Shown here: in pieces, positions 1,899-60,011 of the stretch
Layout of the letters: each line of letters opens with the position of its first letter
How positions within the stretch are numbered: position 1 is the first letter of the stretch
NCBI GenBank assembly: GCA_050084515.1
Contig: CM114271.1
Span: forward strand, 30,008,001 to 30,072,000
DNA length: 64,000 nt
From: Blasia pusilla
Taxonomy: Eukaryota
Reading direction: 5' to 3'
The notes under the pieces: generated by a model
The model's input: the letters and a program-made list of their open reading frames with translations, nothing else
What the model was told of the DNA's origin: nothing
Database searches by the model: none
Position numbers and translations under genes: made by a program

Positions 1899-2123
1899 CA
1901 ACGTCCGGGGAGAACCGGCGTTACGTGTTGAGCTGGCCGGTAGAATTTGAGAATTGCCGAATCAGGTCGTCAGTTACCGGCCAAAAACCGAGGGTTCAGG
2001 GAGGGTGTCCTTCGTATTCGTATCTGTTTAGCCGGCTGGAATGAAGAGAACTTTGAAAATTTCCGCTCGGGTTTGTAGAGACCGGAAATGTACCGGTTGT
2101 CACGAAAAAACTCCCGGACCCTG
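1899..2123. mobile_element. hAT-type MITE (225 bp)
   Basis: Imperfect TIRs CAACGTCCGGGGA / CTCCCGGACCCTG. Perfect 8-bp TSD ATATGAGC at 1891-1898 and 2124-2131. Many internal (A)CCGG subterminal motifs. Confidence 0.8.
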
Positions 2124-4745
2124 ATATGAGCACACAAAGATGGCACAAATGTTTGTTAATATTTGAACTGTCGAATAAAGCTTCGCATTAACTCTCAATA
2201 GTGAAATGGTAACATTGAAGAAATCGTTACTTGAGTGTCCATTGAGCTCTCACTGTATCTGATCAGAGTTTCTAAACTTGGTAAACGTATCAATAAAATG
2301 GTCCAAAGGCCTCCAAGAAGCTTAAAAAGAGTCTTCGAGGAGATAGACATCTTGATGATCGGATGTCCTTCCTCACGATTGTAACAACCTCTAGGACATA
2401 ATTTAAATATATGACTAAAAAAAACCGTTACAATCAGATGGACCTATTGAAACCCTTAAATATCCTCGTAACTATATGAAGTGTACCAAAAGACCTAAAC
2501 GAAGTGAGCCTCCCCAAGTGGTTGGAAATGCCACGTGTCACACTCTTGACTATTTGTGAAATGAGAAGGTACTCTCTCATAATACTATAGATTATGTAAC
2601 TATAAAGTAGTTCATGAGTGAGAACTAATGGACCGCATGATATAAACACAATAACACACTTAAGGCGATTATTATGTGTGTGTCAAACTTATGGTTCAAA
2701 AATATTTTTTAACTTGTTATTTTGGGTAAAATGTGCAAGATAAGGATTATCCTTACCTCAAATATTTTCTTGTAAGCACATTCTTCAAGTATGCCCTTCT
2801 TGAAAAGGACACATTATCGGATATATGGACAAATAGAAGCAATGGCCAAAATGATGGATGTCTGTTTTTTGGATTTGAATTGTAATCATCATGATATAGA
2901 TATTAATGCATGATAGATATTTAAGGAGTTAAGCATCTTTGCACGACATACCTAAAGAGAATTAATTTGACCACTTTAAGGTTGAAGACGACTTGTTGAA
3001 AAGGTGGATAATTTATGTGTGAAAGTTAGACCCTGGTTTTGGGTCATCTAGACCTATTTTGGGGCATTTATCTTTTTTTATTAAAGTAATTATTTATAGC
3101 CTTTTTTACTTTCCGATTGGCAAGTGGGTCGTTAACCACTACTATGTGTTACAATAACAGAGGTGATATGTGCTAAGAGGTCACCAATGAGAGGCCCTAA
3201 GGAGAGAGGGGGGATATATCTCATGGGTATAGGAGGTTAATTTCTCCTTTTATTGAATCTTGTTATATGAACCATATGAGTTTTGGTCTTATAGGTTTCA
3301 TGTTTTCATGAGTAACCTCCACCTCTTACTAGGAGAGAAGATTTTATTTGAAAATATATAGGAGTAATGGCAAAAGTATGTATGTTCTCCTTGCTGATTT
3401 ATTTCCAATCATGATTTTTATTTAATAATAAGATCTTTTCTCCCTTGTAAAAATTCAAGTTGGCACCACAATTAAAAAGATAAAAAAGAATTCGTTGCAA
3501 TTCTCCTTAATACTTACAATGATGTATGTGATAATGCAAAAGCACATGCTCTATTTGACCACATAATATTACAAGACAAATCATTATTTGAACATTTCTA
3601 CACCAAGGTTGCAATTTTATCATATATGATAATTATAGAATTTTCTTATGCACAACAAATATGATACTAATTATCACTCTCATTCATTTTCAAAACTTAG
3701 AAGAAATGGTTTACATGATATGCAAGAAACTTGATCATTTTGACATGTGGAGAGAAGACCTTCGTCCAATGTAAATTTTCTTCTTGGAGAGGATTGAAGA
3801 TATGGATTGTTCCCACCCATGTACAAAGTGAATTATGCAGTTTTGTATGCTTGTCCATGGAATTTGAAGGGCATGATTAAAAACTACGAGAATAAAAATC
3901 ATCCCTTTTTATGTGAGAAGGGAAGACCTTGGCTCCCTTTTTGCCCATTTCCCCTTCAACCCATTTAATATTTTCACCACTTTTAGCTGAGCAAACGCGG
4001 ATTTTTTTATTCCTTAACACTTGTGATAAATGGAGCTTCCCCTTTATATCACTTTTTCTTCCTCTTGGAAATTGAATGTTTTAAAATTTCAATAAATAAA
4101 AGGTTTATCTAATAACATGTTACAAGATATATAAAATACCAGTAGCATGAGAGAACATGATTCCTTCTTTCTAAATAGAATAAATTTAGAAAGTGTATAT
4201 ACTTGTGGAACAAAGATCTCAAAATTAGGGGAAAATTCCCTTAAAATAAATCTTCAATGGAAAATCCAAAGAACACAAAATTGCATTATCTATGGCTCCA
4301 AAACCAAAGTAATAAGAGCAATAGCCATCAAAATGTAAGAATTTTGTTACAAGAATAAGTGGTAAAAGGATCGAAGTGTTCGGTTTAATTTGGAAAGGTT
4401 TCACACTTATCACAATACCCATAAGGATAGAATATTTTTAAAAAAAATTTATGGATTTGAGTTTTATGAACACCTCCTATAAGATTTCACATAAACTCTA
4501 TTAGTCACTCTTTGTTCTCCCAATGTTATCTATTTTATGATTTTCTTCCAATTGACGAAGAGTAAACCTAACCCCATTGTGACAATAAAATTTATGACTC
4601 AACATTGACCATCTTGTAGGATGAGTTTTTTATCACCCTCTAACTATAGAACTATATCGTCTAAGTCTCGCTTGGAGGACTTATTTAAGGATCCCACGTT
4701 GAAGTACTAAACTAGGCCTAACTCATAGATGTTTTCACCATTTAC

Positions 4746-9571: not shown

Positions 9572-10006
9572 TCACTTCAACTTTCCTCGGAGTTTCACAC
9601 CGAGGGCCCTCTCCATCTTCGCAAGAATCTGCTGATTTGGAATTGCTTTTCCCGCCTCGTATTCCTGGACAACTTTAGGTAGCTCGCTAATCAGCTTCGC
9701 CAGCTCGACTTGCGTCAACTTCTTCTCCAGCCGAGCCTTCTGAATGGCCTGCTTCACTTCATGGGACACTCTGTCGATAGCGATAGACTCGGTTTCTTGG
9801 TCGAGCTTGCGGGGGTTGATTGCAGTCTGCCCAGCTTTCTTGTTAGATCCAGCGTCAGGTTTCTTGGTCACCTGCACTTCCGCTCCCGATCTTATTGCAG
9901 CAGCGACGGCTTTCGGATCGCGGGAGTCGGAAGCCTTGATTCCTCTCTTGTGAATGACAACAGGGTCCCAATCCTGAGTGACTGGACCTGTTCCTCTGGA
10001 TGGCAT
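9572..10006 (-). CDS. MBF1c: Multiprotein bridging factor 1c (144 aa, intronless CDS)
   Basis: MPSRGTGPVTQDWDPVVIHK N-terminus typical of MBF1c. HTH region AIQKARLEKKLTQVELAKLISE...VVQEYEAGKAIPNQQILAKMERALGVKLRGK. Confidence 0.95.
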   Translation of the reverse strand: MPSRGTGPVTQDWDPVVIHKRGIKASDSRDPKAVAAAIRSGAEVQVTKKPDAGSNKKAGQTAINPRKLDQETESIAIDRVSHEVKQAIQKARLEKKLTQVELAKLISELPKVVQEYEAGKAIPNQQILAKMERALGVKLRGKLK

Positions 10007-10974
10007 TTCCTCCTGTCCTTGAACACAGTATTAACTCCGATACATTTCCTACGCACATGTAAAACGTCCAACCAGAGACACAGCATAAATTGACAGTTTT
10101 CTTGAAATTACGAAATTGCTGTTCCACCTCACCAGAGAATCAAAACACAGGACTCAAGATCACGCAGGTTTGTCACTTGAATTCAATTTCCAAAGTAGAA
10201 ACCTAATGAATCCATTGGTTCCAAGGATTCTGAAACCGAGATTAGATGCCTTCGAGCTAATGGTTCGGTTTTGAGGATGCTGATAAATTTTCAACGACGG
10301 AGGAAAGAACAACCGCAGCCTTCATACGAAACGACATCTGGTAGTTTGCGCGTCCATAGTTGAATCGGAGTGATCAAAATAGCGGATTAGAGAACACCGG
10401 ACACCTACCTTATCTTACACGCACAAACAAAAACATGTATGGGATTATCACCTTCTAACAGTTACCCCCGGCAACAGGAAAACTGAAGCAACACCGTCGA
10501 ATGGAAATGCGCTCGCTCTACTTCAGTGCGTCGACGAAGACAGCGTCTTGGTACAACAAACACAGGAATTGACTGTGGGTACTTCCTTGAAGATAGATTA
10601 GATCAAATTGCCGGAGCCTAATGCACCAGGATGGCTAGATTTTGTATAGTTGCGCGCGCCGCAGAAGCCAGCTCACGACACTAGATGAAAGGCGACGTGA
10701 CGTATGGCAGGAAGGTAAATATAGTCGCAGACGCAGAGTCGATCGGTTGCACCAACTGCCGAGGCGCCACTACGAAGTGAAGATATTTCGCGGAGCGACA
10801 GTTTCTGGATAACCGACATCGCGCGTTTGAGCTTACTACAAGGTTCTCGAGGACCAACTGGGAGCAAGAGTGTAACTCACCTGTTCTTGACATGTGTCAG
10901 TGTCAAGAACGGTCTAATCTCTAATACGGTTGCGGTTTGGGCTGGAAGGAGGAATTTACTTGGAGACGTCCTCA

Positions 10975-30978: not shown

Positions 30979-33900
30979 CTACTCTTCCATGATCTGCTTG
31001 CCCTTGCCCATAGGTTCTTTGTACATCTGGACCAGCTCTTTCACGACACGTTTCACAGAGCCATTGTTCTTAAACATTAAGCGCCGATTCATCTCAACGT
31101 CATAAAATCCCATCTCTTCCAGCTCCTCCAGAATTGGATCCCACTCTGCAGCGACACACAAATCGTCCAAAGTGCGTTGGAAGTCTAACTTGTTTTTCTC
31201 CAGCAACTCCAGGATTAGTTTTCGATTGGTGAAACCCATTGCTTCCAGCTTGTCACATACTGCAGGTGCAACCTTATCGCTCATCACCTCTGCCATTTCT
31301 GCGCTGATGGAACTCTCTGATACAGGGGCTTGAATCGGAGCACTAGAAACATTCATTGTAGGTGGCATCTCAACCATGGAGAAACCACCCCCTAATTCAC
31401 TACTCTCCACCGCTGCGACATCATCCTGTGCCTTCACATCTATCTTAGGTTCCAAGACGCTTGGATATTTTGACTCCTCCACAGGCAGTTGTGCTACTAC
31501 CTCACATGCTGGAATTGATTTTTCCACCCTTGAAATCTTCGAAAATGGATTCTCCTCTCTACTTCCATCTTCCTCCGTTACAATAGTCATTGGTGTTTCC
31601 CCTTTAATGCCGTTATTTTCCTGGTTAGCTAATTGCACATCGAATGGAAGAGCGTTCTCAACAACGCTTTCCTCCTCAGCCACATCCTTACTACACTCAG
31701 CACTGGGTGTAGCGACAGATTCGGAGGTAGAGATGAAGTAACGAATAGCAGATAAGGAGTCCACCAAGTTCAGCCCTGAACTTTCTTCTGTACTTTCTGA
31801 TTCATCTACCGTCACATCCAACGTTGCCTGATTCAACCCATTCTCAATATTGTGTACATTTGTTTCATGTACTTTCTCAACCACCTTTATCAACCCCAAA
31901 GGAATCGGATTAGAAAGAGAGAAGTGTCAAACAGTTTAACCACAGCTAATACGCACATTGAAATCAAACATTACACTCACAGTTATTGAAGTCACACTTT
32001 GAAGAGAGTAATAATCTGCAATACCAGTCTGCTTACTCCAGGCAAAGCAATGGGAGGGTACCTGAATTGACACCCACACACGATGTCCGAACTTTGGGCC
32101 GAGAGGGGATGCAAGACGCCAGTGGGAGACATAGCGGCCAGGTCTCTCGGGTGCCACAAACTCTACTGATACTTCCACCTCCTCCTCGGGACTTAATCCT
32201 TGCTGGGGTAACTGAACCCAGGAAACATGGACATCAATACGGCAAGGCCACGATAAAAATGTTTCGTATGAAGTCATCCCGTGGACCGCAACAGACAGAT
32301 CACGAGTAGAGAAAGAAAACCGGGATGTGAACACCGGAAGCTCCCCAAAGAAAAGTTAAGCTAGCCTTTAGCATTCGAATTTTCCTATTAACTGGCCCAC
32401 ACCTTGGTCCAATTTTACTCAATTTGGTGAGTTAGATTATACTCATGAGAAACTTACATCTAATGGCGCGCTGACGCCACAACCCAGATCGTCACCGCTG
32501 ACCTGTACAATCTTCGTGCCAGCAGGCCACGACAACGTGCCGCTATTTCGAAAACGCCAGGTTTTCGTGAATTTGGTTCGAGGAGGCAACTCTGTCCCGT
32601 CCAGAATAGTAACGTCTTGCACGAACCGGGCATCCAACTTTCCTCCGTAACCACCATTCATATGGTACGTATGAGTGCACCGACTATCAGGTCGCGCACC
32701 ATACGGTCCACGCGTAGTGCAAGTCTTCCCCGGGTAGTTGTTTCCACTCAATGCAGGACAGCGCTGAAACATAACTCCGTTAAGTCAGAGCTTCTTAAGT
32801 TAAAACATACAAGACCTGTTCATCTCAAATGTGTAATTTCTCCACAAGCGGACAACCAGTTCTACATCAACATTCACAGGGAGGAAAAACGTACCACCCG
32901 TCCGGTGGCGGGGGAGTGCATGTGCCGAGGACGATACACCGGACGATCCATTCGTGTGTACTCACTGCTATTACCTATGTCCTTGAAACAACCCAGGCAC
33001 AGGTCGTAGTCATGGTTCCTACAATTATGACAAATTGTGAGTAAGTTTTCCAGATTAGCGTAATTCCATGGGACAACACTCGTCTCAATGAAAGGAACCA
33101 GTGCGAGCGACTTACTTTGATGACTTAAAACGAGGACCGATTATAGGGTTCACTCCACAGCCGTCGCACTGCACACCAGTATGAAAAACGCGAGTCACGT
33201 TCACTGCTTCAAGCGGATCGCTATCTACTCTCTCTCTATCAGTGGACGGGGGGCCTTCAGGATTTTCAGAAACTAGATCAGCCGAAGTCTTGATTGGGGC
33301 TGTCTCTGAGGGAGTAGTAGTCGACGCTTCCCGAGTACTAGTGGAGGTGAAGAGTTCGGCCGAGACACGTCCCGTGCCTGAATCCACGCTCTTCACTGAA
33401 GACACAATTTGAGAGGTAACCGTTTTCACGATGGTTTCGAGCAAGTCTGAAAGCTGGCGCGGTGATGCAGAACCCTTCAGAAGAGGTTGCAAGGCGACCA
33501 CACACGGCTTCACAGCATCTGGGGAGAACTCTCTCAGCAAATCGTCGCAACTGGCACCAGGCTCCACATTTGATGTACGCTGCTCAGCACGTATCTCATC
33601 CTTGTGCGTGAGGAGAACGACGTTCAAGCGCAAAGGATTGAGGGCTTGCACGACACACGCATCCTCCAAGTCCTGGTCGTCTCCCATGGTAACAATATCA
33701 TTGTCCTTGTCCGTGTAAGTGATACGAAGCTGTGAATTTTTCGGCAGCTTGAAGATTTCCCGAATCTTGGCTTCCAGCCTCGCGAAAGAAAGAAGACCTC
33801 TATTCTCATCCTGAGGTCGGTCGCCGTAATACGACAGGCGGCGCAGCGTATCTTCGTACTTTATCTGCAAAAAATCGATTGGTTACAAATCATAAATCCT

Positions 33901-35444: not shown

Positions 35445-35894
35445 CGTCACATATTTTAGGATAGATCGACAAGTTTATAATAGAGCGCCTTCAAGGATAT
35501 TGGAGGAAAACCTCATGAGATCAATGACAACATGTTGGGGCATTGGGTAACTTGAGAGGGCATGTTTCTCCTTCGTTTCAATCGATTTGGAATCATGAAG
35601 AGAAACTTACTATTTTTAGTAAATTGTTGTTATGAATATAGTTGACTTTCTATTTTGGGAAGTGATGCTCGACCCTCTATAACGGGTCAAGAGCCAAGGA
35701 GATCCTAAACCCTAAACCTACGAGCATAGGTTACCATGGAGAGAGCTCGAGAGAGTGAAGGGGGTATACCCAAGGAGAGAGCGTTAGAGCTCATTCTCTC
35801 TTTTTTGAATCTTTTGGCATGAAGCGGCGGAGCTATGGTCCTCATGGCCATGTGAGTAATCGAAGCCTCGGATTACCAGACTGGATTTCGTTAC

Positions 35895-35940
<46 letters not shown>

Positions 35941-36060
35941 CTTGTGTGCACTTGTTGAGTGATCTTGATTTAATTGCATATATTTTGGTGCTCGATTATC
36001 TGGATGTTTAGATGCCATGAGTTAGTATGGTATCTTATATGTTTGTGTGTATACTCGCAA
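35445..36060 (+). mobile_element. Diverged solo terminal repeat (B+A) of the DNMT-bearing retroelement family, inverted relative to 49584-50226
   Basis: Colinear with the reverse complement of 49584-50226: GTCAC..TTTTAGGATAGATCG, GTCAAGAGCCAAGGAG, GAGCATAGGTTACCATGGAGAGAGCT, GCGGAGCTATGGTCC, and then the A segment GATGCCATGAGTTAG. Confidence 0.75.
35897..35936. repeat. (GA)20 microsatellite inside the solo repeat
   Basis: Direct reading. The related copies carry only a short GAGAGAGA at this position. Confidence 0.95.
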
Positions 36061-43176: not shown

Positions 43177-46088
43177 TGTTGCGGAAGCGTATGTTTAGTA
43201 GGGCATGCTCTCACTACTGACTGCATCCAAACACAATCCCATTAATCTGGTCTAGATGAATTAGCCTTCCAACTCACTGAATTCTCAACTCGGCACTCCA
43301 TCAAGCTCAACCTTCCTAGTTTCCCACTTTCCAACGCAGGTTAGTCTTTTGAGACTTGGGACACACTTTCTAGATATTCCAAGCATCCAAAATGATGTTC
43401 GCATGGCGGGCGGTCCCAACTATCCAATAGACCTCATATGAGCCCCTAAAAAAGATCCACTTAAATGAGTCGCAAGTTGGAATCCAAAAGTGGCCTCCGA
43501 AATCCACTCTATTGGACTTGGTTTGGGTTGCGAATCCTAACGCCAAACTTTCGATCCATTATGTGCCTTTGGTTCGCCCCACAACGCCCCAAAATGGGGT
43601 TTGAGTCCCAAGCATTCCTAGATACCTTCCCCCTTACTAGTACTTATGGGTTTCTCCGCCCTCCCCCTATCTTTTGGGAAAAAATTCTCGACCCTTCTTT
43701 TCGGGCCTCAACCCAACTCTGTGTATGGTCATTTTGGGCAGTTTCTCAACTTTTGTTTTTGCATTTTCTAAGATCTTTGGTGCTTTAGAAGTGGCTTTGC
43801 ATGAGCTTTCCAACGCCATCCTACTCGTTGGAAAAAAATCTTGGAACTAAAAGTTATGGTAAAAAATATAGACAAAACCCCAAACACTCATCAGGTTCCA
43901 AATCTGGTTCTCACCTCTTTGGAAACCACTCTTCCTAGACTCTACTCCTCTCAAGTCTCAATTCACGTTTGATTAAGGTTTCCTAGTTACGACCATAGAC
44001 GCATGTAATGCTCAACCTTGTTTGCGTCTCATATCGTGTGTCTCCTTCAAGAGACCTCTCTAATGTGCAAACCATCCTAGTGTGAGCCCACTACAGTTCT
44101 GATATTCCGCTTAACGCTCGTTTGGTTATGAGGGTCATGACACTTATCCCTCGTTAGAGATTGATTCCATCATCAACGACAACCTTCTAATGTAAAGTAT
44201 TTTTGGGAAGTTGATCCTTTGACATCAAATTGCATTCTAATAGCAAACCCATAATTCCTCTTTTGGCTCAATTCTTAGTTTGTTGCATCGGCCACTTAGC
44301 ATCTTTTAGTATCTCCTCTTCGATAAGTCTGGATCAGTTATTCGAAACTAATCTAACCTATCAAATAAGCTAACTAAGTCTGCTACCTAAGACTTCTCTT
44401 GCTTATGACTCGTAAACATCCCACATGTTTACAAGGTCCACAAGTCATACTACTTTGGGGTCGCTCTCATATTCGACTTTTGTGTGTCATTAAGTTCACT
44501 CATGCTATCACAAGTAGGATCACCCCAAGCCCCAAGATAGAGTGATATGCGCGCCGATGCTAGGGTGAGCCCAAGTGTTAGTCACCTAACACTTGGTCCT
44601 ATTCTAGGTGCTTATCCAAGATCTCATCTCAAATACTCCTTGTCTCTCCTCTTGACTTACATTCTAAGCATATGAGGAACTAACCATTGCCATGCACTAC
44701 CAAAACCAAATTGCAATCAACCACTAGCATCCGAATCCATGCATTCTTTTATTGCAACACTAGCCTGTTATAGTCACAATAGCCTTTCGCCCGAACTTCC
44801 TATGGTCACAAGTCATGTCCCTAGCTACTTCAAATACTAACACATGTGCTTTTCTTACATGCGCTTGAAGTCTCGTGACAACTCTTGCTTATATTCCAAA
44901 TCTTCGTCTATAATCCAAGTCACCTCTTTCATATGGTAGCCCTTCCATTTGACCAAGTACTCGTACTTCTTGGCCCATGTCTCAAACAAAAAATGGTCTC
45001 CACCTAGAATTCCGGTTCCTTGTTGACGATCACTAGTTGTAGTGTCAATACTTGCCTTCGCTCGGGATGCACATTATCTTGAAGATACTTCTTTAATGGT
45101 GACAGATGGAAAATCAGGTGAATCTTGAACTCTTCTAGCAACTCCAATGTATAAATATCCTCTAATGGGTTTGCCTTGATCACATACAGTTCAACATACT
45201 TGGAAGACACCTTTGTGGAAAACTCTTTCTGAAGAGTGAGATTCTTCACACTCAACCACACTAGCTCCCCTACTTGGAAACTCACTTAGCACTGATTCTT
45301 GTTAGCATGCTTAATGTACCTTAGTTGAGCCTTTGCAAGACTCCTTCTTTTCCCCCTTGTTTGGCTCTCGCATCTCCATTAACAAATCTTATGTAGTTTC
45401 TTGTTGGTTCCATGCCGATGTAGTACCCTTCGAAAGGGCCAAGTCCAGAGGCCCTTCTAGCTCATTTAAGTGGGTTTTGAATCTCGACGCCATACTTCCA
45501 ATCCATTTTGTGCCCTTGGTTCACCCCGCGGCGCCCCAAAGTAAGGTTTGAGTCCCAAGAAATCTTGCAGACCTTCCCCTTTACTAGTACCTCTAGAGTT
45601 CTCTACCCTCCCCCTATCTTTTGGGAAAAGACTCTCGGCCCCTCTTTTTGGGCCTCAATCCATCTCCCCCTATAGTTGTTTTTGGACAATTTATCATCTT
45701 CACCTTGTCATCTGTTAAGATCTTTGGTGCGTTAGAACCAACTTTGCATAAGATTTCCAACGCCACCTTACATATTCTAAGTACATCTTGGGACTCAAAG
45801 AAAAAATCCAAAATATAGTCTAAATTCCAAACTCTAATCACGTTACAAATGGAGTTCTCACCTCTTTGGCAGCCACTCTTCTTAGACTCGACTCCTCTCA
45901 AGTCTTGGTTTATGTTTGGTTTAGGTTTCCTAGTCACGACCATGAACGCATATAACGTTCAATCTTGTTCTTGTCTTATATCTTGTGTCACCTTTAAGAG
46001 ACCTCTCCAATGTGCAACCATCCTAGTGTAAGTCCACTAGAGTTCTAATGTTCCGCTTGGCGCTTGATTGGTTATTAGGGTTGCGACA
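43177..46088 (-). mobile_element. Internally deleted chromoviral Ty3/gypsy element (full 3' LTR, integrase C-terminus/chromodomain, partial 5' LTR)
   Basis: LTR 43177-44142 (TG...CA) with adjacent PPT-like GAGGGATAAG. A second, partial LTR copy at ~45470-46088. GPY/F region FQVGELVWL...IHLIFHLSPLKKY (45004-45285). Chromodomain KKYEYLVKWKGYHMKEVTWIIDEDL (~44895-44971). Confidence 0.8.
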
Positions 46089-49583: not shown

Positions 49584-49709
49584 TGTCGTGCGCATACACA
49601 TCACTATACAACATACATCATTGTCACCCAACACACACACAAACACACACGATCCCAGGCTAACTCATGGCATCCAAATAACGAGACAAGAAGTACCAAA
49701 ACATCTCCA
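49584..49709. repeat. Terminal repeat segment A, outer copy
   Basis: TGTCGTGCGCATACAC...GCTAACTCATGGCATCCAAA...GACAAGAAGTACCAAAACATCTCCA, repeated at 50229-50345. Confidence 0.85.
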
Positions 49710-50226
49710 ATTAAAATAAGATCCAATCTCTCTCATAACACCATAGTTCTCACATGTGTGCACTCTCACATGTCTCTCTCAATGTCAAATCAAACCCACT
49801 CTCTTAATGAGAGGCTTGGGCTACACTCACAATGCAAGGGACCATAGCTCCGCTGCCTCGTGCCAAGAGGTTCAACAAAAAGAGAATGAGCTTTCAAGCT
49901 CTCTCTCCTTGAGATATACCCCTCCCTTCTCCCAAGCTCTCTCCATGGTAACCTATGCTCCCAAGTCACCTCCTTGGCTCTTGACTTGATGTAGGAGGTC
50001 AAAGGCCACTTACCAAAAATATAAGTCGACCATATACTCAAAATAGTACTTACCTAAAATAGTAAGTTTCTCAATATGGCTACAAATGAGCCGAAACGAA
50101 AGGGAAACCTGCTTTCTCACGTTTTCCGAGGCCTCAACAGGTCATCCTCGACCTCTTGAGCATATCCTCCACTACTCGCGAAGGCACTCTACTACATCTC
50201 AACGATATATCCTAAAAGACGTGATA
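49710..50226. repeat. Terminal repeat segment B, 3'-side copy
   Basis: Aligns with 59444-60011. About 11 differences in a 165-bp stretch compared by eye. Confidence 0.9.
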
Positions 50227-50228
50227 AT

Positions 50229-50345
50229 TGTCGTGCGCATACACAACATACATCGCTGTCACCGAACACACCTACAAACACGCACGATCCCATGCTAACT
50301 CATGGCATCCAAAAAACAAGACAAGAAGTACCAAAATATCTCCAA
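50229..50345. repeat. Terminal repeat segment A, inner copy, next to a PPT-like tract
   Basis: Second copy of A. On the minus strand it is preceded by TAGGGGGGCGAT (PPT-like) and begins TGGAGA. Confidence 0.85.
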
Positions 50346-50526
50346 TCGCCCCCCTAGTTGGTGGTTAGGTCCCTCTAACTCCAGATAGCCATGTATCCCT
50401 ACCTCCCATGACATACATCTCTCGGACACTAAGAGCAAGAAGGCTGGGTGCTCATGTGGCCCCGTCGTTAGTCGCCTTCTTGTCATTAATGTCACAGACA
50501 TAAGTCGGAATGTAGAAATAGCTATG

Positions 50527-50670
50527 CTATGTACATCTAGGACACATCCATCTTCCTTGAGGAATCCTAGTGAGAGGTGGCGTCAAACATACCATATGCC
50601 ATCCTCTCGAACATCCATCACAGACTAGCATAATGGCTGCACCACGGGCAGAACCACACAACATACATCG
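50527..50670 (-). pseudogene. PHD finger (C4HC3) at the integrase C-terminus
   Basis: RCMLCGSARGAAIMLVCDGCSRGWHMVCLTPPLTRIPQGRWMCPRCT*, with all 8 zinc ligands present. Confidence 0.9.
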
Positions 50671-50829
50671 CAAGCCTGCAAAAACTATTGCTAAGCTCGG
50701 ATCAAGTGTATCATCAATTTTTGGAATGTGACACGACATACAGTTACGCACATGGTCCTTCCAAACCATACCATCGCTTCCCTCCAATAAGAGAACAACT
50801 GATGGCGAAACCTCATGCACTCTCAAGAT

Positions 50830-51800
50830 GGTGCCCTTCAGTCACATCCAACGACGTGGATGCCGTCTGCTGCAAGTAGACATAGTCTCCCTGATGAAAC
50901 CTCCGGATAGTAGGTCGATAACCACCTCCCCATATAGTTGTATACCTCAATATATCCCGATGTTGCGCAATCGCCAAGTTCTCAAATGCCATGGGCATCA
51001 CTCTTCGAAACAATTAAGCCCTCTGAGAATATGCTTGCATCCATACATTAGGGTCATTAAGGTTCAACACCTCACCAACATCTTGACGAATGGCTGCAAG
51101 TAAATCACGCTCTCGGCAATACAAAAGCAATTATGGTGAGAAAGACGCTAAGGATGCCTGCTTGTTGAATCTGTGTCCCATCGCCAACCACGACAACTGG
51201 AGGTCCCAATCTCCTATGTGACCTCTCTACAAGCCATACTTGCGTAGTCTTCTCTTCACGGTCTGCACAACCCGCTCCGCTAGTCCATCCGCCTCAGGAT
51301 GATCTCGCGAAGTAGTGCAGTGGTCGATCAGTGCCTGATCTTACAAGGCCTGAAACTCCCCGCGGAACTCTGTACCCTGGTCTATCAACACTTCAGCTGG
51401 TGCATCGCAATGACTTAGCACTTGATCTAGGAAGGAAAATGCTACTCCCTCACTCGCTTTGTCAAGCAATGCAACCAACTCTATCCACTTTGAGAAGTGC
51501 TCGACCATCACCAACACATAATGACTATGGCGCTCTGTAAGAGGCAAAGGTCATGCAAAATCCAAACTCCATATATAACCTAAACCCATGATTGGAAATG
51601 GATGCAACTGTGGAGTTGGAGCATTGAACGATGCTATGACTCGATCACACACCATGCATCTGGAAACAAACTGGTGAACGTATGTTTGCATGCCTCGCCA
51701 CCACAACTGAATGTGGAGCAAGCTGTACGTCCGCTTCACTCCAAAATGACCCAACTCCTCCTGGGCATGACGCACCAAACGTGCTCTCTACGAAGGATGA
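50830..51800 (-). pseudogene. DDE integrase (H2C2 zinc region + rve core), disrupted
   Basis: GHFGVKRT...WWRGM...RCMVC; WSLDFA*PLP; VMVEHFSKWIELV; VLIDQGTEF; TTSRDHPEADGLAERVVQTVK; FHQGDYVYL. Confidence 0.9.
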
Positions 51801-52230
51801 GGCACTACACGCACTCTACCATCCTCCCACACTCGCACCACATGTGTCCCCTCCCATCAGAATCGTCTTGCTCGCTGTAGGATTCGATCCAGCTCCCTAG
51901 CACCCACTGTGCTCACGACACTGCCAGTGCGCATGTACTCCAAGACCACTCCATCGTCGTGAATATCTCGGCTACCTATCGTATCTTCATCAACCTTTGG
52001 ATCTAAGGACTCTACATCAAACCTTCCCATCGAAGTCTCAAAGATTTGGCTCTCCATAGCCAACAAGCCCAAATAGGCTGACGCATGCCATCCTGGCACC
52101 AACTCCCCATCAATCTCACCATGCCAACGAGCTCAAGTCGTATCTCGTTGACTCGGACATGGGTTACGGCTCAAACTATCTGCATCCTGGTTGACCGTCC
52201 CAGGTCTATGCACACTTGGAAGTCATACTC

Positions 52231-53500
52231 CTATAACAAAAGAGCCCACCTCGCAAGCTTCCCTGTAAGCTTGTGAGACTCCATCAACCACTTAAGTGGC
52301 TGATGATCAGTATTGATGGTAAAAGGATTGCCAAATAGATAACATCTAAAATGTGTGACAGCCCACATTGCAACCAAGCACTCACCCTCATAAGAGTTAT
52401 ATTTTGCCCCTGCAGCGTTGTTCGAGCAACTAGCATAAGCCACCACAAACTCTCTACCATCATCGTCATATTGGGTGAGCACGGCTCCAAGCCCCAACAT
52501 ACTCCAATCAGTATGGAATTGGAAAGGACGCCCCTTGATCGGTCTCCTCAATATGGGCACGGACGTCAATCTATCCTTGAGCATATGAAATGATATCTCC
52601 TGTTCATCCTCCCAGTGCCACTCCTGATCCACCTTGCTCAGCAAAGTCAGCGGCTTTGCAATGAAGCTGAAATCCTTGACGTACCGTCGATAGAAGTTTG
52701 CCAATCCCATGAATGCACAAACTCGACTCACATCTGTAGGGCGTGGAATGTGTGAAATAGCCTCTACCTTCATCTGCTGCACACCAAGGCCACCTAGGTA
52801 TATTGTATGACCCAAATACTCAATCTGGTCATAGAAGAACTTGCACTTGTCTGGATGTAGCTTCAGTCTATGTAACTGCAATCGTCAAAACACCTCAGCT
52901 AGGTGTCGTTCATGCTCCTCAACTATGGCGCTAAAGACTGCGATGTCATCAATATAACACCTAGCAAAATCCAGACCTACCAAGATCCTATTTATGACCC
53001 TTTCAAACTCGGCCGGGGCGTTCTTCAACCCAAATGGTAAGAACCGCCAGTGGTATAAGGAATCCTTCATGTGAGGATTGATGCCCAAAAATGCCGTCTT
53101 CTGCATGTCCTCCAATCTGATAGCTAGCTGATGGTATCCGGCTCAAAGATCTAACGAACTGAAGACCTTTGCATGCCCAATTGCATCAAAGATCTCCTCA
53201 AGAGTAGGCATGACATACCTATCGGACTTCGTCTATCGATTGATAGGTCGATAATCTCCACACATCCACCTATCTGTCTCGTCGCCATGCACATCCTTCT
53301 TGGCAGGCATGATAGTGGCAGATGCATACTCTTCATGCGACATCTCCACTAGTCCTGCTCCAACCAAGTCTTGGCTCCTACTCTGAATCAAAGCCCTCTC
53401 CATGTCACTTTATCTGTAGGGTCGTCAGAAGATTGACGTGTCCCTTGACAACTCAATGCGGATCCTTGGATCCTTCAGTGTACCCAAATCATGCATACTA
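52231..53500 (-). pseudogene. Reverse transcriptase and RNase H, disrupted
   Basis: MCGDYRPIN; FSSLDL*AGYHQ; FLPFGLKNAPAEF; YIDDIAVFS; FHTDWSMLGLGAVL; YNSYEGECL; TDHQPLKWL; KLARWALLL. Confidence 0.95.
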
Positions 53501-53934
53501 AATGCAAAACAACACCTATAACTCCTAAGGAACTGGTGTATCCGGCGCCGCTCTCCTCTTGTCAACTTAGGGCTCATATCTTGCTGCCAAAAGTCCATCG
53601 TGACAACGGTAGGACTCTCCGGCGCGGGTGTCGGTGGTTGCTATAGTGCAATCCCATCTCGGACAAAAAAATTCGACTGCTCCCCTACAGTCAACTGCAA
53701 AATCGGATCTCCATATGCAGTACCCGGAACCACGCTCGATGTTGTGGCTACCATCTCCTAGCGTACCGGCAAAACATCCCAAGGAGTTCAAGGGCGTCTC
53801 TCCCAATCACCCTTGGTGTGTCAATCTCCTCGAGTCTCGCCCCCAGCCATTGCCTCAACCATCTCGGTAGGCATGGGGCTCACCAACGCAACTGCTGTGA
53901 TCTATTGCATCCCAAAAGGACAATGCTCAGCTAT

Positions 53935-54890
53935 TCCTAAGCTGAAAATCCATGTTAAGTAGTTCAGGTCCATCGCCTGACCCAAGACATCACATTGTGA
54001 TGCCTCTGAAAATGAAGGTTCTACCGTCACTCATGTGGGGAATCCCATCGCTCACTCTCGCTCATCGACGTTGGGCTCTACCAACCTCTGTACGTGGTCA
54101 TCCCAAACCAAGCCAGGTCCGGCCTCCTTGAATGTATAGGAAGCGGGAAAACTCACCAATGTGGGAAAGGTTGCCCATGGTATGCCAATCCTGTTGAGCA
54201 TAGTCAACGGCGGTCGATCATCTAGCCTCATTGCGTATGATCGATGGCCCGGATCCAATATAGAATCCACCAACAAATCGGAGGGGTGCTCCACTCTCGC
54301 ATATGCCCTCCGCAACACCTCGTGTGGTACCAAGTTGGTCCACCAAAGACACAGGCGATGTGCTCATGAACCCACACTTGACGCATCCAACAAAACTGCC
54401 GGGTCGATTCATGCGCGCACCTGATGTGCACTTGTCACCACACGGGACCTCGAATCGCCCAAAATTGGTACATTTTCCAGAATGTATCCTTCATGACGAG
54501 ATTGATGCTCCTGCAAGTGTCGCAAGATCCGCATCATCTCCCAAAACAACGTGGACCGAGAGTCAGCTAATACGCTACCCCGTTCAGCACTCGACTGGCC
54601 CTGATATGGCCAACCAGCAATGACCAAGTTTATGGTCCCTACCCGCTCTGAGTCCTGCGCCCCCAACAATGAAATGTCCCTCAGTAGGGAACTCTGGTAA
54701 CCCTGAATGGCGGACCCAGACAACAAGTCAGGAAAACAGAGGCACAACTTCGCTATATGGTGAAGTGAAGTGCGCCTCGCAACATCATCAATCTCCACAT
54801 ACAGGTACTGTTGCACACGCACTCCACTTTGCAAAACAGCAACTAATCCAGCACTGATCCCTCCAAAGAGATCCAACACCCGAATACCCT
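53935..54890 (-). pseudogene. C5 cytosine DNA methyltransferase domain (DNMT3-like motif order) within retroelement pol, disrupted
   Basis: Motif I RVLDLFGGI (~54857-54882). Motif II YVEID. Motif IV LVIAGWPYQG, where the catalytic PC is PY (codon 54604-54606). Motif VI YILENV (~54469-54486). Motif VIII S*AHRLCLWWTNL. Motifs IX/X ERE*AMGFP...VLGQAMDL. Same frame as the RT ORFs. Confidence 0.85.
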
Positions 54891-55299
54891 TCTCTAGGAT
54901 CCACCACAAAATCGGGGTGGTATCCAAATGGGTCATAGCAAATCTCTTGGCTACCTTGGGTCCCTCTGACCCGTCACACTCTGGTGCAAACGTCTCGCTC
55001 CACGCGGTCTACACATGCTCAGTGGCTAAGCGTCGAAGCTCCTCAATCAAGCCCCAAAGAGGCACCTCTCCTCCACTGATTGATGTGGCTACCATGACAC
55101 TCCTCTCCATAGAAATGTGAGGAACGAGAGTATCCTCTGCATGGACATATCCCTCAATCAAATCACTAGGCCAAGTGATGGCAATGCTAAATGCTCCTAA
55201 GGTCGCCATCTCTCCTGGCCGTCGCTCGATCACTGTACTTGTGAATCAAATGGGTAATGAGCTAAGGCGTCCATCACCTGACTGCCATCATGGTCTCGA

Positions 55300-55610
55300 G
55301 GACCCTGACTCCTCCCAATAATCCAAGGAAAACCCCATCGGATATAACACTGCTCCACCAACCAAGACGTCATAGGACACTGCATCAGTCACTATCGCCT
55401 TGGCTCGCACCACGGACTCATCTGTAGGATGTCTTGGGAAAATCCTCACCATGACCTCATGTCGGGTGATATACTATATGGTACTCGCTCTACCCAAGGA
55501 TGTCTGTATCCGGAATGGAAAACGCTCCACATCGGCTCTCGTCAAGCCCAATCCTCTGAATGACGCTTTCCCCAACATAGGGGTTGCGCTCCTGAATCCA
55601 ACAAGACGCA
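55300..55610 (-). pseudogene. Retroviral-type aspartic protease, frameshifted
   Basis: Active site VLLDSGAQPL (~55580-55608). Downstream DAVSYDVLVGGAVLYPMGF. Confidence 0.75.
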
Positions 55611-56239
55611 TTGCGGACTAAAAGGTGTTCCTCATGGACTCACCAACTGGAAGACCTCTCCCCAATTATCCAGCAATACAACACTAAGAGAAGCCATGGC
55701 ACGCTCTATCATGGGTCTAGCGGGCATCTCCGCCATCCTAGCAACCGCAGCCTGCCATGAATCTGACGTGGACGGCCTGAGCATCCGCTCCAAGGGCACT
55801 TCCATCATCTCCTCTACAATCACCTCCGAATGTTATGCATGAACTACAATTCCACGCTCACATAGCATAGCAACCAGCCGGAAAACCTCGACGGACGTAC
55901 CCCCCAACGTCATAACATCAGAAGAAGTAAATAGCGGAGCACAGTACACCATCGTGGTCACCCCCAACATCATACTTGACACATGCTCCTCATGAGCATC
56001 AACAATAGGAGTCACAATACTCGCTTCTCCCATCGCCCTCCATGCTTGCATACCAATAACATCACCAACTCTATGGGAACTCTGATCACGATCCATCGAT
56101 GGGGTCCTCATTGCCTCAGACAATGTGAAAGATTGAGGAAGCCTGGTCTGTTTCTTGGCTTCCCCTCCTTGTGGATCCAACTCTACGACTGCTCCATGCA
56201 TCACAATTGCAGCGACCTCCATCTGGGCAACCACGCACA

Positions 56240-57697
56240 TTCAACCAGGATCCTCCATATCTCTAGCAGCTCCATATGATATCAATGCCACGGATTCGTC
56301 ATCGGGTAACCTCAATGCCATAGCGGCAATGTGCTCATGTAGCTGCTGTATCTGAGCAGCCATCCCAGCCTCACGCTTGACATCTCCCTCAACGCATCTA
56401 GGTGGTGGGACTCTATCTCCTCCACGGGCAGCTCCACCACCCTGTCGGGAAACTCTAGCTCCTCGTCCCCCAACGAGACCACATAGTGCATGATCTCTGG
56501 GCCCACTCGGACCGACTACTCGCTCTGGTGCCCTCTTTGTCCCTCGGTCCGCACGTAACTCAGGGTGTAAAGTGAAACACCTGGCACGTGTTTGACCATA
56601 CCTCTGAAAATAGTCACACTCAAAATCTTCCGGTGCAACACCCTCTACTCCTCCATGCTGAGGCACACGTCCATGACCTAGACGAGTGCAATCACGCTCA
56701 TGATGGGCTCCACCACATGACCAACAAGTAATTGTAGGCAGCTGCTACTGAGCCGCATATGCATGCGCAGGTCTCTGTGGCATGGCTTCGCGGTATCCTC
56801 CCTTAGCTCGTGGTGCCACAGTCGACCTATCTCGGAGTCCACTTTGCTGCATTGGTGGTGCAAACAATCGTGACTTCTCTCGCCCAGAACCCATGGTGGC
56901 TACGCTCTCCTCCGCCATGTTGCGCTCAATGTTCTTGGCGGTCCTAAAAACATCTCTCAATGTAGGCGAGGTGTTCATAAGAAGCACCCCTCCTGCACCC
57001 TTGTCCGCAGGGTCCGATCCAGCATGGCGTACCATGACTCGATAGCCTGAGCCTCTGTCACCCCCTGAGTGACGTTGATCAACTGACGCAAGCGAGTGTA
57101 AGCCTCACCCAAACTCTCACCCGGGTGCCTCTGGAAGTTGTGGATGCTCTGCAACTTCTCCGTCCGTACCGCGTGGTAGCTCGTCCTCAACTCAGCGAAG
57201 AACTCAACCACGGGGTTGAACCTGGGATGAACTTGACTAGACGGTGAAACTGCTCCAGTGCAAGTGACCCCTCCTAAAATATCACTAGTGGAAGAGGAAG
57301 TAGCCTCTTCTGACTCCTCCTCCTCATATGGGAACGGCTCCGTCAATGACACATAGTGTGGGTCATAGTAGAGTCGCCATGCCTCAATCTCCTGGGCATA
57401 TCTGTGGGAGAACTCATGGTAATCGTCAATAGGCGCCCCCTCTAAATGCTAGAACAAACCGTTCCATGCTGTAAATGGGTTGAACGCTATAGAGTTCCTA
57501 GCCTACTGTGAGTCACACCAACTCCTAAACTCCACAATGAACTCGTGTAGCTCTAAAGTGCCTACAACACCCGAAAACCTACGCGGTCCTCTACCTTGGT
57601 CGTCCATCTCGTGCGCCAAACTGGCAGGACTACTTAATATGTATGGTGGATCACCAACACACTCCTCTACACCCTTCCCCTTGTCTGAAGACGACAA
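56240..57697 (-). pseudogene. Retrotransposon gag with degenerate zinc knuckle
   Basis: MSSSDKGKG...PRRFSG; FQRHPGESLGEAYTRLRQL; CDYFQRYGQTRARC (decayed CX2CX4HX4C). Confidence 0.8.
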
Positions 57698-59443
57698 AGA
57701 AGGAGATCGAGGTGATCTCTCACGTGGAGACCCTCGAAACCTCGCACCATTCTAGGTTAACCCTCCAGAGCTTCTCTCAGGTCTACTACCTCGCCTCTCA
57801 AAATCCCAAAGGATGCCGTGATGGCCCTGGTACCCCTCTTACACGATCACTCTCAATCTAGCAAGTAATCCCTCAATCACTAAAACTAAACATGCGACAC
57901 TCAATCTACACTCTCTCACTGAGACGTGTGTTGTGCAGCAACAAGCGGTGCGGTCTGATAAATCAACAGATCTATCATCTCATCGACGAACCATCCTCAA
58001 CTCTAGACATCCCACACAAGTCTATGTCCCCTAAACCCATATATCATTGCTGCTCTCACCATCAGCACAAAACCCAATATCCCAAATAACTTCCCAATAC
58101 CCAGATATCCCTCAGATGTGTAGGGTAAGAGACCAGAATGGGTAACCTGAAAACAATGTCGATGTCGCTCCTCGACAACTGCAAATCTCGACCCCAACTC
58201 GGTCGTGAAGACAAATCCTCCAATCAGCAAGTCGTACTCCTCCCGTACTGATGCTGATGAAACCTCCTCGATGTGCGATGCACGTCCAGTGGTCCAATGC
58301 GGCACTGGCAGCACGGAACGGCTACAAACGGCATGGCACTCGGGAATGGGATGCGGCACTCGGTGGCATATCCTCCTCAATCAGCAATTCACACACTCTG
58401 CTCCTTAGTGAAGGAGCGACTCCGCGATGAAGATGGTGTGGTGTGGCCACGAGTGGCCAGCGCGACAATTAGCGGCGCGTTGCGGTTACGGGCAACACGG
58501 CACGGTACTCGATCGTCGTCGAGTGGCTACCAATCACAACATAATAGCACGAAATGAAAATTCAAACTCCATAGCCCGAGGTCACCTGCCATCACTGGTT
58601 GTTGACGAAACTGCGATGACAATAGCGACCAAAACAAAGTACATGGTGGCGACGCAAGTCAGAAAATCAATGGTCATCATGGAAGACCCTCCACTCTGTA
58701 ATGGCGGCAATGGCAACCAAGGGTGGACAATGGCCAAAAGCAGCTCAGAGTAGTGCTAGGCGGCGGCAGCGGCGGCGGCGGACGACAATAGACGGTGGAT
58801 GGTGAACCAATGATGTTGACGGTTGACTGTTGATGGCGTACTATTGACGATGACTATGGCGGCAGTGGCTGCCGCCGGCGCCGTGGCTGGTTTAGGGTTT
58901 GAACAATTTAACCCAAAAAATCGCCTAACAATGGAAAATTTTTCAAGATTGACCATAAGTTTTTGTTTGCAACTCCAAATTGTGGATTTTTTTTTTGCAC
59001 AGCATGCACAACTTCACGATCTACGACAACATCAAAAAATAATTTGAATTGGATCTTCCAATAAAAACGTACGTGGACTGTTGTAATGCACAACGTCTCT
59101 TTCTCCTACACAAAATGTGGCAGCGCTTCCGGGCTGATTTCTCCCAACGAAACTGTAAAACTTGTGAGAACACAAATCAAGAAGCTACATGGTACTCCCA
59201 AGAGCACCGACATGGAGCAATCTTCCCCCATACTCAATTCCTGTCGAGAATTGGGCAGCGCTTCCGTGTGCCTTTCTCCCGTACAAAATATCAGCAAAGC
59301 AAAACAGCAAACTCGCACGACTCTTGCTCCGATGAGCACTCCCATGAGCCATGAAGTACGGAACATGGTCCCCCAACCTGCACCAAACATCGAACAACCA
59401 GCTAGCTCCCCCATCAAGCTCTCTCACTCACTCATTCTCTTTT

Positions 59444-60011
59444 TGTAATATAAGATCTAATTTCTTGCACAACACCATAGTTCTCACATGTGTGCACTCA
59501 CACATGTCTCTCTCAATGTCAAACCAAACCCACTCTTCTAATGAGAGGCTTGGGTTACACTCACAAGCCAAGGGACCATAGCTCCGCCGCCTCGTTCCAA
59601 GAGGTTCAACAAAGAGAGAATGAGCTCTCAAGCTCTCTCTCTCCTTAAGTATACCCCTCCCCTCTCCCAAGCTCTCTTCATGATAACCTATGCTCCCAAG
59701 TCACCTCCTTGGCTCTTGACCTGATGTAGGAGGTCAAGGGCCACTTACCAAAAATATAAAGTTGACTATATACTCAAAATAGTACTTACCTGAAATAGTA
59801 CTTTTCTCAATATGGCTCCAAATGAGCGGAAATGAAGGGGAAACCTACTCTCTCAGGTTTTCCGCGGCCTCACCAGGTCATCTTTGACCTCATGAGCGTG
59901 TCCTCCACTAATCATGCCTCAGAAGGTCATCTTCGACCTCCTAAGCCTGTCCTCCACTAATTGCAAAGGCGCTCTACTAGATCTCAACGATCTATCCTAA
60001 AAGACGTGACA
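59444..60011. repeat. Terminal repeat segment B, 5'-side copy
   Basis: TGTAATATAAGATC...CCTAAAAGACGTGACA. Contains a ~49-bp tandem duplication (~59870-59965) that is absent from the other B copy. Confidence 0.9.

Follow-up and report, generated by a model that had tools for sequence, protein, structure and literature searches.

Retrotransposons that carry their own DNA methyltransferase (DNMT) have been described in the dinoflagellate Symbiodinium and, under the name Gypsy-Dnmt3, in the charophyte Klebsormidium (de Mendoza et al. 2018, PMC5890265). The main text of that paper states that DNMTs were captured repeatedly by retrotransposons, proposes methylation of complementary DNA (cDNA), camouflage and self-restraint as roles of the enzyme, and does not mention Marchantia. 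Here we describe an element in a stretch of 64,000 nucleotides of the liverwort Blasia pusilla (contig CM114271.1, forward-strand positions 30,008,001 to 30,072,000), which we refer to as the window. Very probably, this element is one decayed insertion of a Ty3/gypsy-type retrotransposon belonging to a family of green plants that contains a cytosine methyltransferase derived from DNMT3.

The best described counterpart is KnitGypsy-Dnmt3 of Klebsormidium nitens, presented in the main text of PMC5890265 as a long terminal repeat (LTR) element of the Gypsy type with a non-rearranged DNMT3-related domain in its coding region, and the same applies to the window element. The hosts are streptophytes in both cases, but the host of the window element is a land plant, with relatives of the element in mosses. 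According to the legend to Fig. 4c of that paper, KnitGypsy-Dnmt3 combines DIRS-like repeats with Gypsy domains, with which the split direct repeats of the window element agree; judged by its architecture, the latter is an element of the same kind. SymbioDIRS-Dnmt3 of Symbiodinium also contains a DNMT3-type domain within a retrotransposon polyprotein, and its de novo CG methylation in yeast is the only functional precedent given there. However, it is a tyrosine-recombinase DIRS element of a dinoflagellate that resulted from an independent capture, whereas the window element has a DDE integrase (PMC5890265).

A literature search that covered passages of main text did not reveal a published description of DNMT-bearing retrotransposons in land plants, and later literature (a 2025 paper and a 2026 preprint), in the excerpts available, speaks only of “streptophytes”. 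The first-pass annotation, which was made from the letters of the window alone, was not aware of a description in land plants; none was found in the literature covered, but the kind of element is published for Klebsormidium (PMC5890265, main text) and its relatives are already present in databases as “hypothetical proteins”. As far as checked, what is new is that such elements occur in bryophytes, a model species among them, together with the conserved read-through-type stop that places the enzyme in the Gag open reading frame (ORF), an integrase tipped by a PHD finger, and split repeats in combination with target duplications of the integrase type.

Anatomy, termini and state of the window copy

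The element extends from approximately 49,584 to 60,009 on the minus strand (~10.4 kilobases) and has the layout A1 - Gag (zinc knuckle) - protease (PR) - DNMT - [UAG] - reverse transcriptase (RT) - RNase H - integrase - PHD finger - B1-A2-B2, in which A and B are repeats (Table 1). This anatomy was mapped by homology, using tblastn with the Marchantia proteins P0008 and P0015 and the long polyprotein P0084. The positions of motifs and Pfam domains give the Pol order PR - RT - RNase H - integrase. Pfam matches were obtained for seven of the ten translated pieces of the element region, and the neighbours of the piece matching the methyltransferase family PF00145 are RVT_1, RT_RNaseH, Integrase_H2C2, rve and PHD. 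For the domains typical of gypsy RT-RNase H and integrase (PF17917/PF17919, PF17921, PF00665), E-values of 4.9e-30, 1.4e-27 and 7.2e-13 were obtained; in the broken window copy rve scores 30.3 bits, slightly below the cut-off of 32.6, and it is clear in relatives. Pfam gave no match on the Gag pieces 56978-57448 and 55836-56240; Gag was assigned via its homology to P0008.

Table 1. Features of the element, in positions of the 64,000-nucleotide window.
Feature	Position	Strand	Evidence and remarks
Terminal repeat A1 (5' end, starts TGTCACG)	59446..60009	-	90.1% over 466 nt and 86% over 94 nt versus 49712-50224
Gag N-terminal region	56978..57592	-	tblastn with Marchantia P0008 residues 9-215: 51% identity, 2 stops; possible start Met near 57607
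Gag zinc knuckle (CWSCGGAHHERDC)	56688..56726	-	Translated ORF 56241-56744; homologous knuckle in P0008; CCHC domain (PF00098) in relative P0132
Aspartic protease active-site motif LLDSGAQPL	55578..55604	-	Same motif kept in P0008, P0015, P0005 and P0006; PF13650 in relatives P0072, P0076 and P0077
Complete DNMT3-like C5 cytosine methyltransferase domain, motifs I-X in normal order	~53929..54888	-	PF00145; tblastn with P0084 and P0008; 4 premature stops
Catalytic cysteine codon, now TAT (Tyr)	54604..54606	-	Motif reads PY; Cys in 139 of 142 family representatives covering the position
Conserved in-frame stop with context TAG CAA CCA (UAG + CARYYA)	53635..53643	-	Stop conserved at this point in the window and 47 of 80 loci
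Reverse transcriptase + RNase H, YIDD at 52956-52945	52213..53589	-	RVT_1, RT_RNaseH, RT_RNaseH_2; 64% identity to P0015 residues 696-1102, 6 stops
Integrase (H2C2 zinc domain + DDE core), entered via frameshift at 52213	50867..51970	-	Integrase_H2C2, rve; 42% identity to P0084 residues 1189-1554, 7 stops
PHD finger, C-terminal end of integrase ORF	50533..50832	-	PF00628, E 2.3e-11 (on 50530-50841)
Internal repeat B1	50240..50346	-	89.7% identical to 49605-49711; adjoins A2 via ...CA-NN-T(G/A)... junction
Repeat A2	49712..50239	-	Partner of A1
Terminal repeat B2 (3' end, ends ...CGACA)	49584..49711	-	1103 sister-copy DNA reads diverge to unlike flanks exactly at 49584

The first-pass annotation had proposed a Ty3/gypsy-type element with a non-permuted, DNMT3-like domain located between protease and RT and in the frame of the latter, and our results bear this out. 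All the methyltransferase motifs that it quoted are present in the single-frame minus-strand translation of 55245-52231, in the order I, II, IV, VI, VIII, IX, X: VLDLFGGIS (54879-54853), VEID, AGWPYQG (54618-54598), ILENV (54483-54469), AHRLCLWWTN (54363-54334), ERE*AMGFP (with AMGFP at 54051-54037) and LGQAMD (53985-53968). The ORF fragments that it listed share one frame, and the span of 53935-54936 that it gave for the domain is essentially that obtained with tblastn. The PF00145 match lies on 54412-55008 (E 1.1e-5, 25.5 bits, gathering cut-off 22). The protease motif does lie upstream of the methyltransferase, but it is in a different frame, with a frameshift near 55578.

The chromatin-reader-type domain of the element is the PHD finger, and this is located after the integrase and not beside the DNMT. 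Chromoviruses are Ty3/gypsy elements with a chromodomain after the integrase. They share with the window element the position of a chromatin-reader module at the integrase C-terminus, the reader being a chromodomain there and a PHD finger here.

No pair of equal LTRs was found in the window or in the related loci L013, L051, L058 and L065, all of which have the split repeats A1...B1-A2-B2. (The related loci, or L series, are the 80 retained of 200 stretches encoding a relative, among 267 matched stretches in a scan of metagenome contigs.) Five further loci (L015, L024, L037, L038 and L008) show A...B only, without a terminal repeat. The element ends are TGTCA...CGACA (TG...CA), and sister-copy reads enter unlike flanks at the A edge matching 50224. 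These reads belong to a set from one DNA run and three RNA runs, labelled as the same species, that was aligned to the window at a likeness of at least 80%. Target duplications of 4 bp are perfect in eight of the nine related loci, namely all four of the A...B-A-B form and four of the five of the A...B form, with three of the four bases agreeing in the fifth. The internal B|A junction resembles a joined pair of ends. With respect to the two integrated forms, either recombination between the B repeats deletes A-B, or replication gives rise to both.

Split direct repeats of the form A1...B1-A2-B2 define the PAT/Ngaro elements, as described in excerpts of PMC4157794, and the shorter A...B form, with target duplications, also occurs in the family of the window element. 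PAT/Ngaro elements have a tyrosine recombinase, whereas in the family described here the integrase is of the rve type, the ends are TG...CA and the target duplications measure 4 bp. A tyrosine recombinase domain was reported neither in the window nor in the full polyproteins of relatives, in which rve and Integrase_H2C2 are present. Inspection by eye of the usual places beside A1 and A2 revealed no recognisable tRNA primer-binding site or polypurine tract. Positions 35447-36050 of the window are 72-74% identical to repeat A in the opposite (plus) orientation, and are probably the remnant of another, older member of the family.

The window copy contains 30 premature stops, and its frame changes near 56980, 55578, 52213 and 50832-50867. 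Because of these 30 stops, at least four frameshifts and the replacement of the catalytic Cys by Tyr, the copy is dead and unable to encode any protein. At the four frame changes (52212, 55578, 56986 and 50832) between one quarter and two thirds of the sister-copy DNA reads differ in length from the window; therefore, these lesions are private to the window copy or its near kin. Repeats A1 and A2 are approximately 90% alike, corresponding, at the substitution rates usually assumed for plants, to an insertion age of some millions of years.

The methyltransferase and its family

An intact relative, P0001, was compared with the sequences in PDB. The best match was DNMT3A (6e-12), followed by DNMT3B, DNMT3C, plant DRM (1e-8) and bacterial enzymes (at least 3e-4; M.HaeIII 3e-4). 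An AlphaFold (AF2) model of P0001, built with 39 sequences, has a predicted local distance difference test (pLDDT) score of 91.5, and in a Foldseek search with this model all the matches listed to rank 50 are DNMT3A, DNMT3B or DNMT3C, with target template modelling (TM) scores of 0.80-0.84 versus catalytic-domain chains. By its sequence and its predicted fold, the element DNMT is DNMT3-like. Its catalytic fold and motif order match those of DNMT3A/B; it is not a DRM because the motif order, which is permuted in host DRM, is unpermuted in the element. Unlike host DNMT3, the Gag-PR-DNMT proteins of relatives have no PWWP or ADD domain in Pfam, which reports PF00145 alone, and unlike either host enzyme the element DNMT is embedded in an intron-less transposon ORF.

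Residue counts were obtained from the best 150 cluster representatives of a HMMER pass over 1.84 billion such representatives, which gave 4268, 965 and 269 matches at E-values of at most 1e-3, 1e-10 and 1e-30, respectively; 68 of these 150 are at least 1000 residues long. Across representatives of only 35-78% identity, 139 of the 142 that cover its position retain the catalytic Cys. Glu is retained by 142 of 145, and the two Arg by 140 and 142 of these 145. At the Pro position of the Pro-Cys motif 71 of 141 representatives have Glu and 55 have Pro, which gives much of the wider family an unusual “EC” active-site loop; the Cys is kept (139/142).

A search with the 199-residue DNMT fragment of the window retrieved 21 proteins at E-values of at most 1e-3 (best 1.7e-60; 54-58% identity), and the reading as a chance ORF was rejected. 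The possibility that the window contains a host DNMT3 gene interrupted by a transposon was also considered and rejected. “Hypothetical” proteins bearing the domain number 17 in Marchantia polymorpha and are also found in Calypogeia fissa, Sphagnum troendelagicum and S. fallax. Marchantia P0008 is an unbroken Gag-knuckle-protease-DNMT protein of 1278 residues in which FGG, PCQ, ENV, RxR and GQ are intact, and the gene model P0015, also of Marchantia, links PR, DNMT, RT and RNase H. An intact Pro-Cys motif, one of the points left for checking by the first-pass annotation, is present in the unbroken bryophyte proteins. A relative from a green alga is the “pol” of the chlorophyte Scenedesmus sp. 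The PHD peptide is encoded in 26 of the 80 related loci, mostly at 55-71% identity, and a PHD finger is also terminal in the algal-type polyproteins P0084, P0094 and P0125. The domain, the stop that follows it, the PHD finger and the split repeats are thus seen again in relatives from Marchantia, Calypogeia, Sphagnum-like contigs and, in part, green algae. The integrase- and PHD-containing protein P0117, which also matches the family, carries the label of a Spirochaetia metagenome-assembled genome; most likely, this is mis-binned eukaryotic DNA.

A quick maximum-likelihood tree was made of 44 DNMT domains, with the window domain read with X at its stops. The window DNMT groups with the domains of Marchantia, Calypogeia, Sphagnum fallax and Sphagnum-like loci in a clade that has a support of 100 in the Shimodaira-Hasegawa-like approximate likelihood ratio test (SH-aLRT), and its long branch fits with decay. 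This clade lies within a larger group (support 98) to which P0132, with the order knuckle-DNMT-RT-RNase H-integrase, also belongs; outside the group are elements that have the DNMT between RNase H and integrase and are PHD-terminated. The RT, integrase and PHD of the window are 40-45% identical to those of the algal-type polyprotein P0084. The DNMT is located between RNase H and integrase in distant relatives (P0125, P0084 and P0094, including the Scenedesmus “pol”), and between protease and RT in the window clade. These two positions imply that the domain moved within Pol, and the tree suggests one such move (branch support 98), the architecture being taken from four polyproteins.

The element DNMT domains of liverworts (P0008 of Marchantia and P0068 of Calypogeia), P0006 and the Sphagnum-like loci L002/L035 are 72-76% identical to each other, whereas an exon of the host gene NBR1 in the window shares only 33-51% identity with its counterparts in other liverworts. 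The high likeness of the DNMT domains may reflect strong constraint or horizontal spread among bryophytes.

DNA depth is ~1900-3800 over the element (~1900 over the DNMT part and ~3000 over RT) versus 24-35 in the lowest flank bins, which suggests a family copy number of roughly 60-125. In an index of sequencing runs the best DNA runs share 0.18-0.23 of the words of the sequence and no RNA run is listed, which speaks neither for nor against the element. RNA depth is 35-230 in the three runs, with a strand bias of ~10-fold whose direction is sense if the library is a standard stranded one, and it climbs ~4-fold toward the 3' half of the element. These reads suggest that the family is transcribed, from the sense strand, in the same species. 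An RNA joint between 49920 and 50410, in which 489 bases are skipped and six other letters stand between the two sides, was present in 4, 8 and 10 reads of the three RNA runs and in no DNA read; it may come from a 3' transcript of the family, spliced or variant.

The stop between DNMT and RT, the proposed mechanism and its alternatives

One reading frame covers the end of DNMT and the start of RT in 40 of 56 rows (39 loci and the window), and in 47 of the 80 loci, as well as in the window, exactly one stop is present between them at a fixed place. With the window counted, this codon is TAG in 37 cases and TAA in 11. The stop is followed by CAACCC in 45 of the 47 loci and by CAACCA in the window, in which TAG CAA CCA corresponds exactly to UAG-CARYYA and the downstream frame is shared. 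Fourteen predicted proteins (of Marchantia, Calypogeia and others) terminate 72-158 residues past motif X. Because the stop is conserved and these proteins end there, the DNMT closes the Gag-PR ORF and forms the C-terminal part of a Gag-PR-DNMT ORF, and its fusion to RT/RNase H would require read-through of the stop. The first-pass annotation had taken the methyltransferase to be part of the RT/RNase H polyprotein. The common frame on which this was based is real, but with the conserved stop in between a fusion would arise by read-through only.

In gammaretroviruses Gag-Pol is made by read-through of an in-frame UAG located between the structural ORF and the polymerase. In plant viruses, UAG followed by CARYYA is known as the type I read-through signal (excerpts of PMC5382211), and there, as in the element, the in-frame UAG follows an upstream structural ORF and precedes the polymerase; the element differs in being a retrotransposon whose upstream ORF already holds a protease and a methyltransferase.

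For active members of the family we tentatively propose the following steps, which taken jointly are somewhat improbable. The main translation product would be Gag-PR-DNMT, and a minority of ribosomes would pass the UAG in its type I context, adding RT-RNase H-integrase-PHD. The methyltransferase would travel with the particle or act in the nucleus, where it could methylate the new cDNA or the new insertion de novo; this function is the one put forward as a hypothesis in the main text of PMC5890265. The PHD finger might steer the integrase via histone H3 tails, and the DDE integrase would insert DNA with TG...CA ends and yield the 4-bp target duplications.

Several observations weigh against this proposal or against parts of the description on which it is built. 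No read-through was observed in the data, and the CAACCC of the relatives fits five of the six CARYYA positions. The DNMT domain is uninterrupted in only two of the 80 metagenome loci. The ratio of nonsynonymous to synonymous substitution rates (Ka/Ks), calculated pairwise on copies in which the domain aligns in a single stretch and which are mostly dead, has a median of 0.56 for the DNMT (50 loci, 1220 pairs), moderately below 1, compared with 0.39 for RT-RNase H (17 loci, 135 pairs); of 75 matched pairs, 64 have a higher value for the DNMT than for RT-RNase H, and the ratio is 0.86 (p = 0.61) for the DNMT of two intact copies. For KnitGypsy-Dnmt3, values below 0.2 are given in the main text of PMC5890265. 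Since 155,122 of the 195,841 aligned reads are less than 90% alike to the window, the copy number is a rough family figure and the RNA is not assignable to intact copies. The target duplication of the window copy itself (GTCA versus GTCC) agrees in three of four bases, kinship with KnitGypsy-Dnmt3 is judged from shared architecture alone, and a report of enzyme activity for the bryophyte clade was not found in print. The stronger argument for selection on the enzyme is the deep conservation of its catalytic residues, and not Ka/Ks.

The points concerning the stop also belong to an alternative that we consider unlikely, namely that this codon is not a read-through site, and that RT and integrase are expressed via splicing, re-initiation or a separate transcript, or that the DNMT-containing ORF1 is a lone regulator. 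The Marchantia gene models P0015 and P0020 span the stop with an intron, and the rise in RNA depth toward the 3' half is in keeping with this alternative. However, the two ORFs are in one frame in most rows with a single conserved stop between them, the window has the full motif, and the bridging introns are most simply explained as annotation devices.

Similarly unlikely is that the methyltransferase serves the host, or that it lost its activity on DNA in this clade and has, for example, an RNA target or a structural role, in which case cDNA methylation would not be the reason for its retention. The weaker constraint on DNMT than on RT, as judged by Ka/Ks, and the frequent Glu in place of the Pro of the PC motif are in line with such a change, and one Symbiodinium retrotransposon DNMT did not methylate DNA in yeast (PMC5890265, main text). 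On the other hand, the unbroken proteins of the bryophyte clade retain every one of the motifs FGG, PCQ, ENV, RxR and GQ, and the modelled fold is close to that of DNA-bound DNMT3A, which would favour an enzyme acting on DNA.

It is less probable still that bryophyte elements acquired their DNMT3 independently of Klebsormidium Gypsy-Dnmt3, the likeness between them being convergent. Repeated capture, as stated in the main text of PMC5890265, makes this conceivable, no Klebsormidium sequence is present among the named matches (the HMMER cluster library carries no names), and in the wider family the domain sits either ahead of RT or between RNase H and integrase. Yet the DNMTs of bryophyte, unnamed and chlorophyte (Scenedesmus) elements constitute one family (E < 1e-44, and the DNMT tree), the likeness to algal-type P0084 extends to the RT, integrase and PHD of the window, and the DIRS-like repeat layout in the legend to Fig. 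4c of PMC5890265 is also that of the window.

Finally, a one-off capture, in which a single insertion gained or came to adjoin a fragment of a host DNMT3 gene while its family lacks the methyltransferase, can be dismissed as extremely improbable: the window copy is degenerate and its Pfam score of 25.5 bits is modest, but 39 related loci and Marchantia proteins have the domain in an identical position and frame, followed by the same stop, read depth over the DNMT is comparable in magnitude to that over RT and far from that of the flanks, and Pfam detects no PWWP or ADD of host DNMT3 alongside. As the first-pass annotation had argued, the domain is a trait of the family and not a randomly captured fragment.

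Neighbouring features and implications

Two host genes are present on the minus strand of the window, a homologue of MBF1 (PF08523 and HTH_3; 9575-10030) and a gene for an autophagy receptor of the NBR1 type (PB1, NBR1 Ig-like and UBA domains; 30982-33882). The NBR1-type exon at 33115-33882 is closest to that of Marchantia paleacea (51%), followed by those of Riccia fluitans and R. sorocarpa (40%) and Calypogeia fissa (33%), which identifies the host as a liverwort and hence a land plant. The window also contains direct repeats at 43524-44061 and 45471-46008 that are 78-79% alike and 1947 bases apart. DNA depth at 43524-46008 is 90-400, versus ~30 in the lowest flank bins, and therefore another repeated element is located there; reads show a joint that goes back 1944 bases.

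The role of cytosine methyltransferases encoded by transposons has been a question since they were reported in 2018, and the known hosts, Symbiodinium and Klebsormidium, do not lend themselves to manipulation. Elements of this kind in which the enzyme motifs are intact are present in Marchantia polymorpha, a land plant accessible to genetics, and in a related liverwort the element appears to be multi-copy and transcribed. The intact motifs in Marchantia therefore make it possible to address by experiment whether such an element methylates its own cDNA and whether it affects the host methylome. The count of five DNA methyltransferases for Marchantia, none of them transposon-borne (excerpts of PMC5784723), omits the element copies, which bears on surveys of these enzymes in bryophytes.

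The broadest picture compatible with the above, which we regard as rather doubtful, is that transcribed gypsy elements of living bryophytes, Marchantia polymorpha among them, yield Gag-like amounts of a DNMT3-type enzyme because it is encoded ahead of a leaky UAG, that this enzyme methylates the elements' own new DNA and possibly host DNA, and that a PHD-tipped integrase selects the chromatin in which they insert. If true, split-repeat, integrase-driven replication would be a so far undescribed mode among LTR elements, and transposons would encode some of the capacity for de novo methylation in early land plants.

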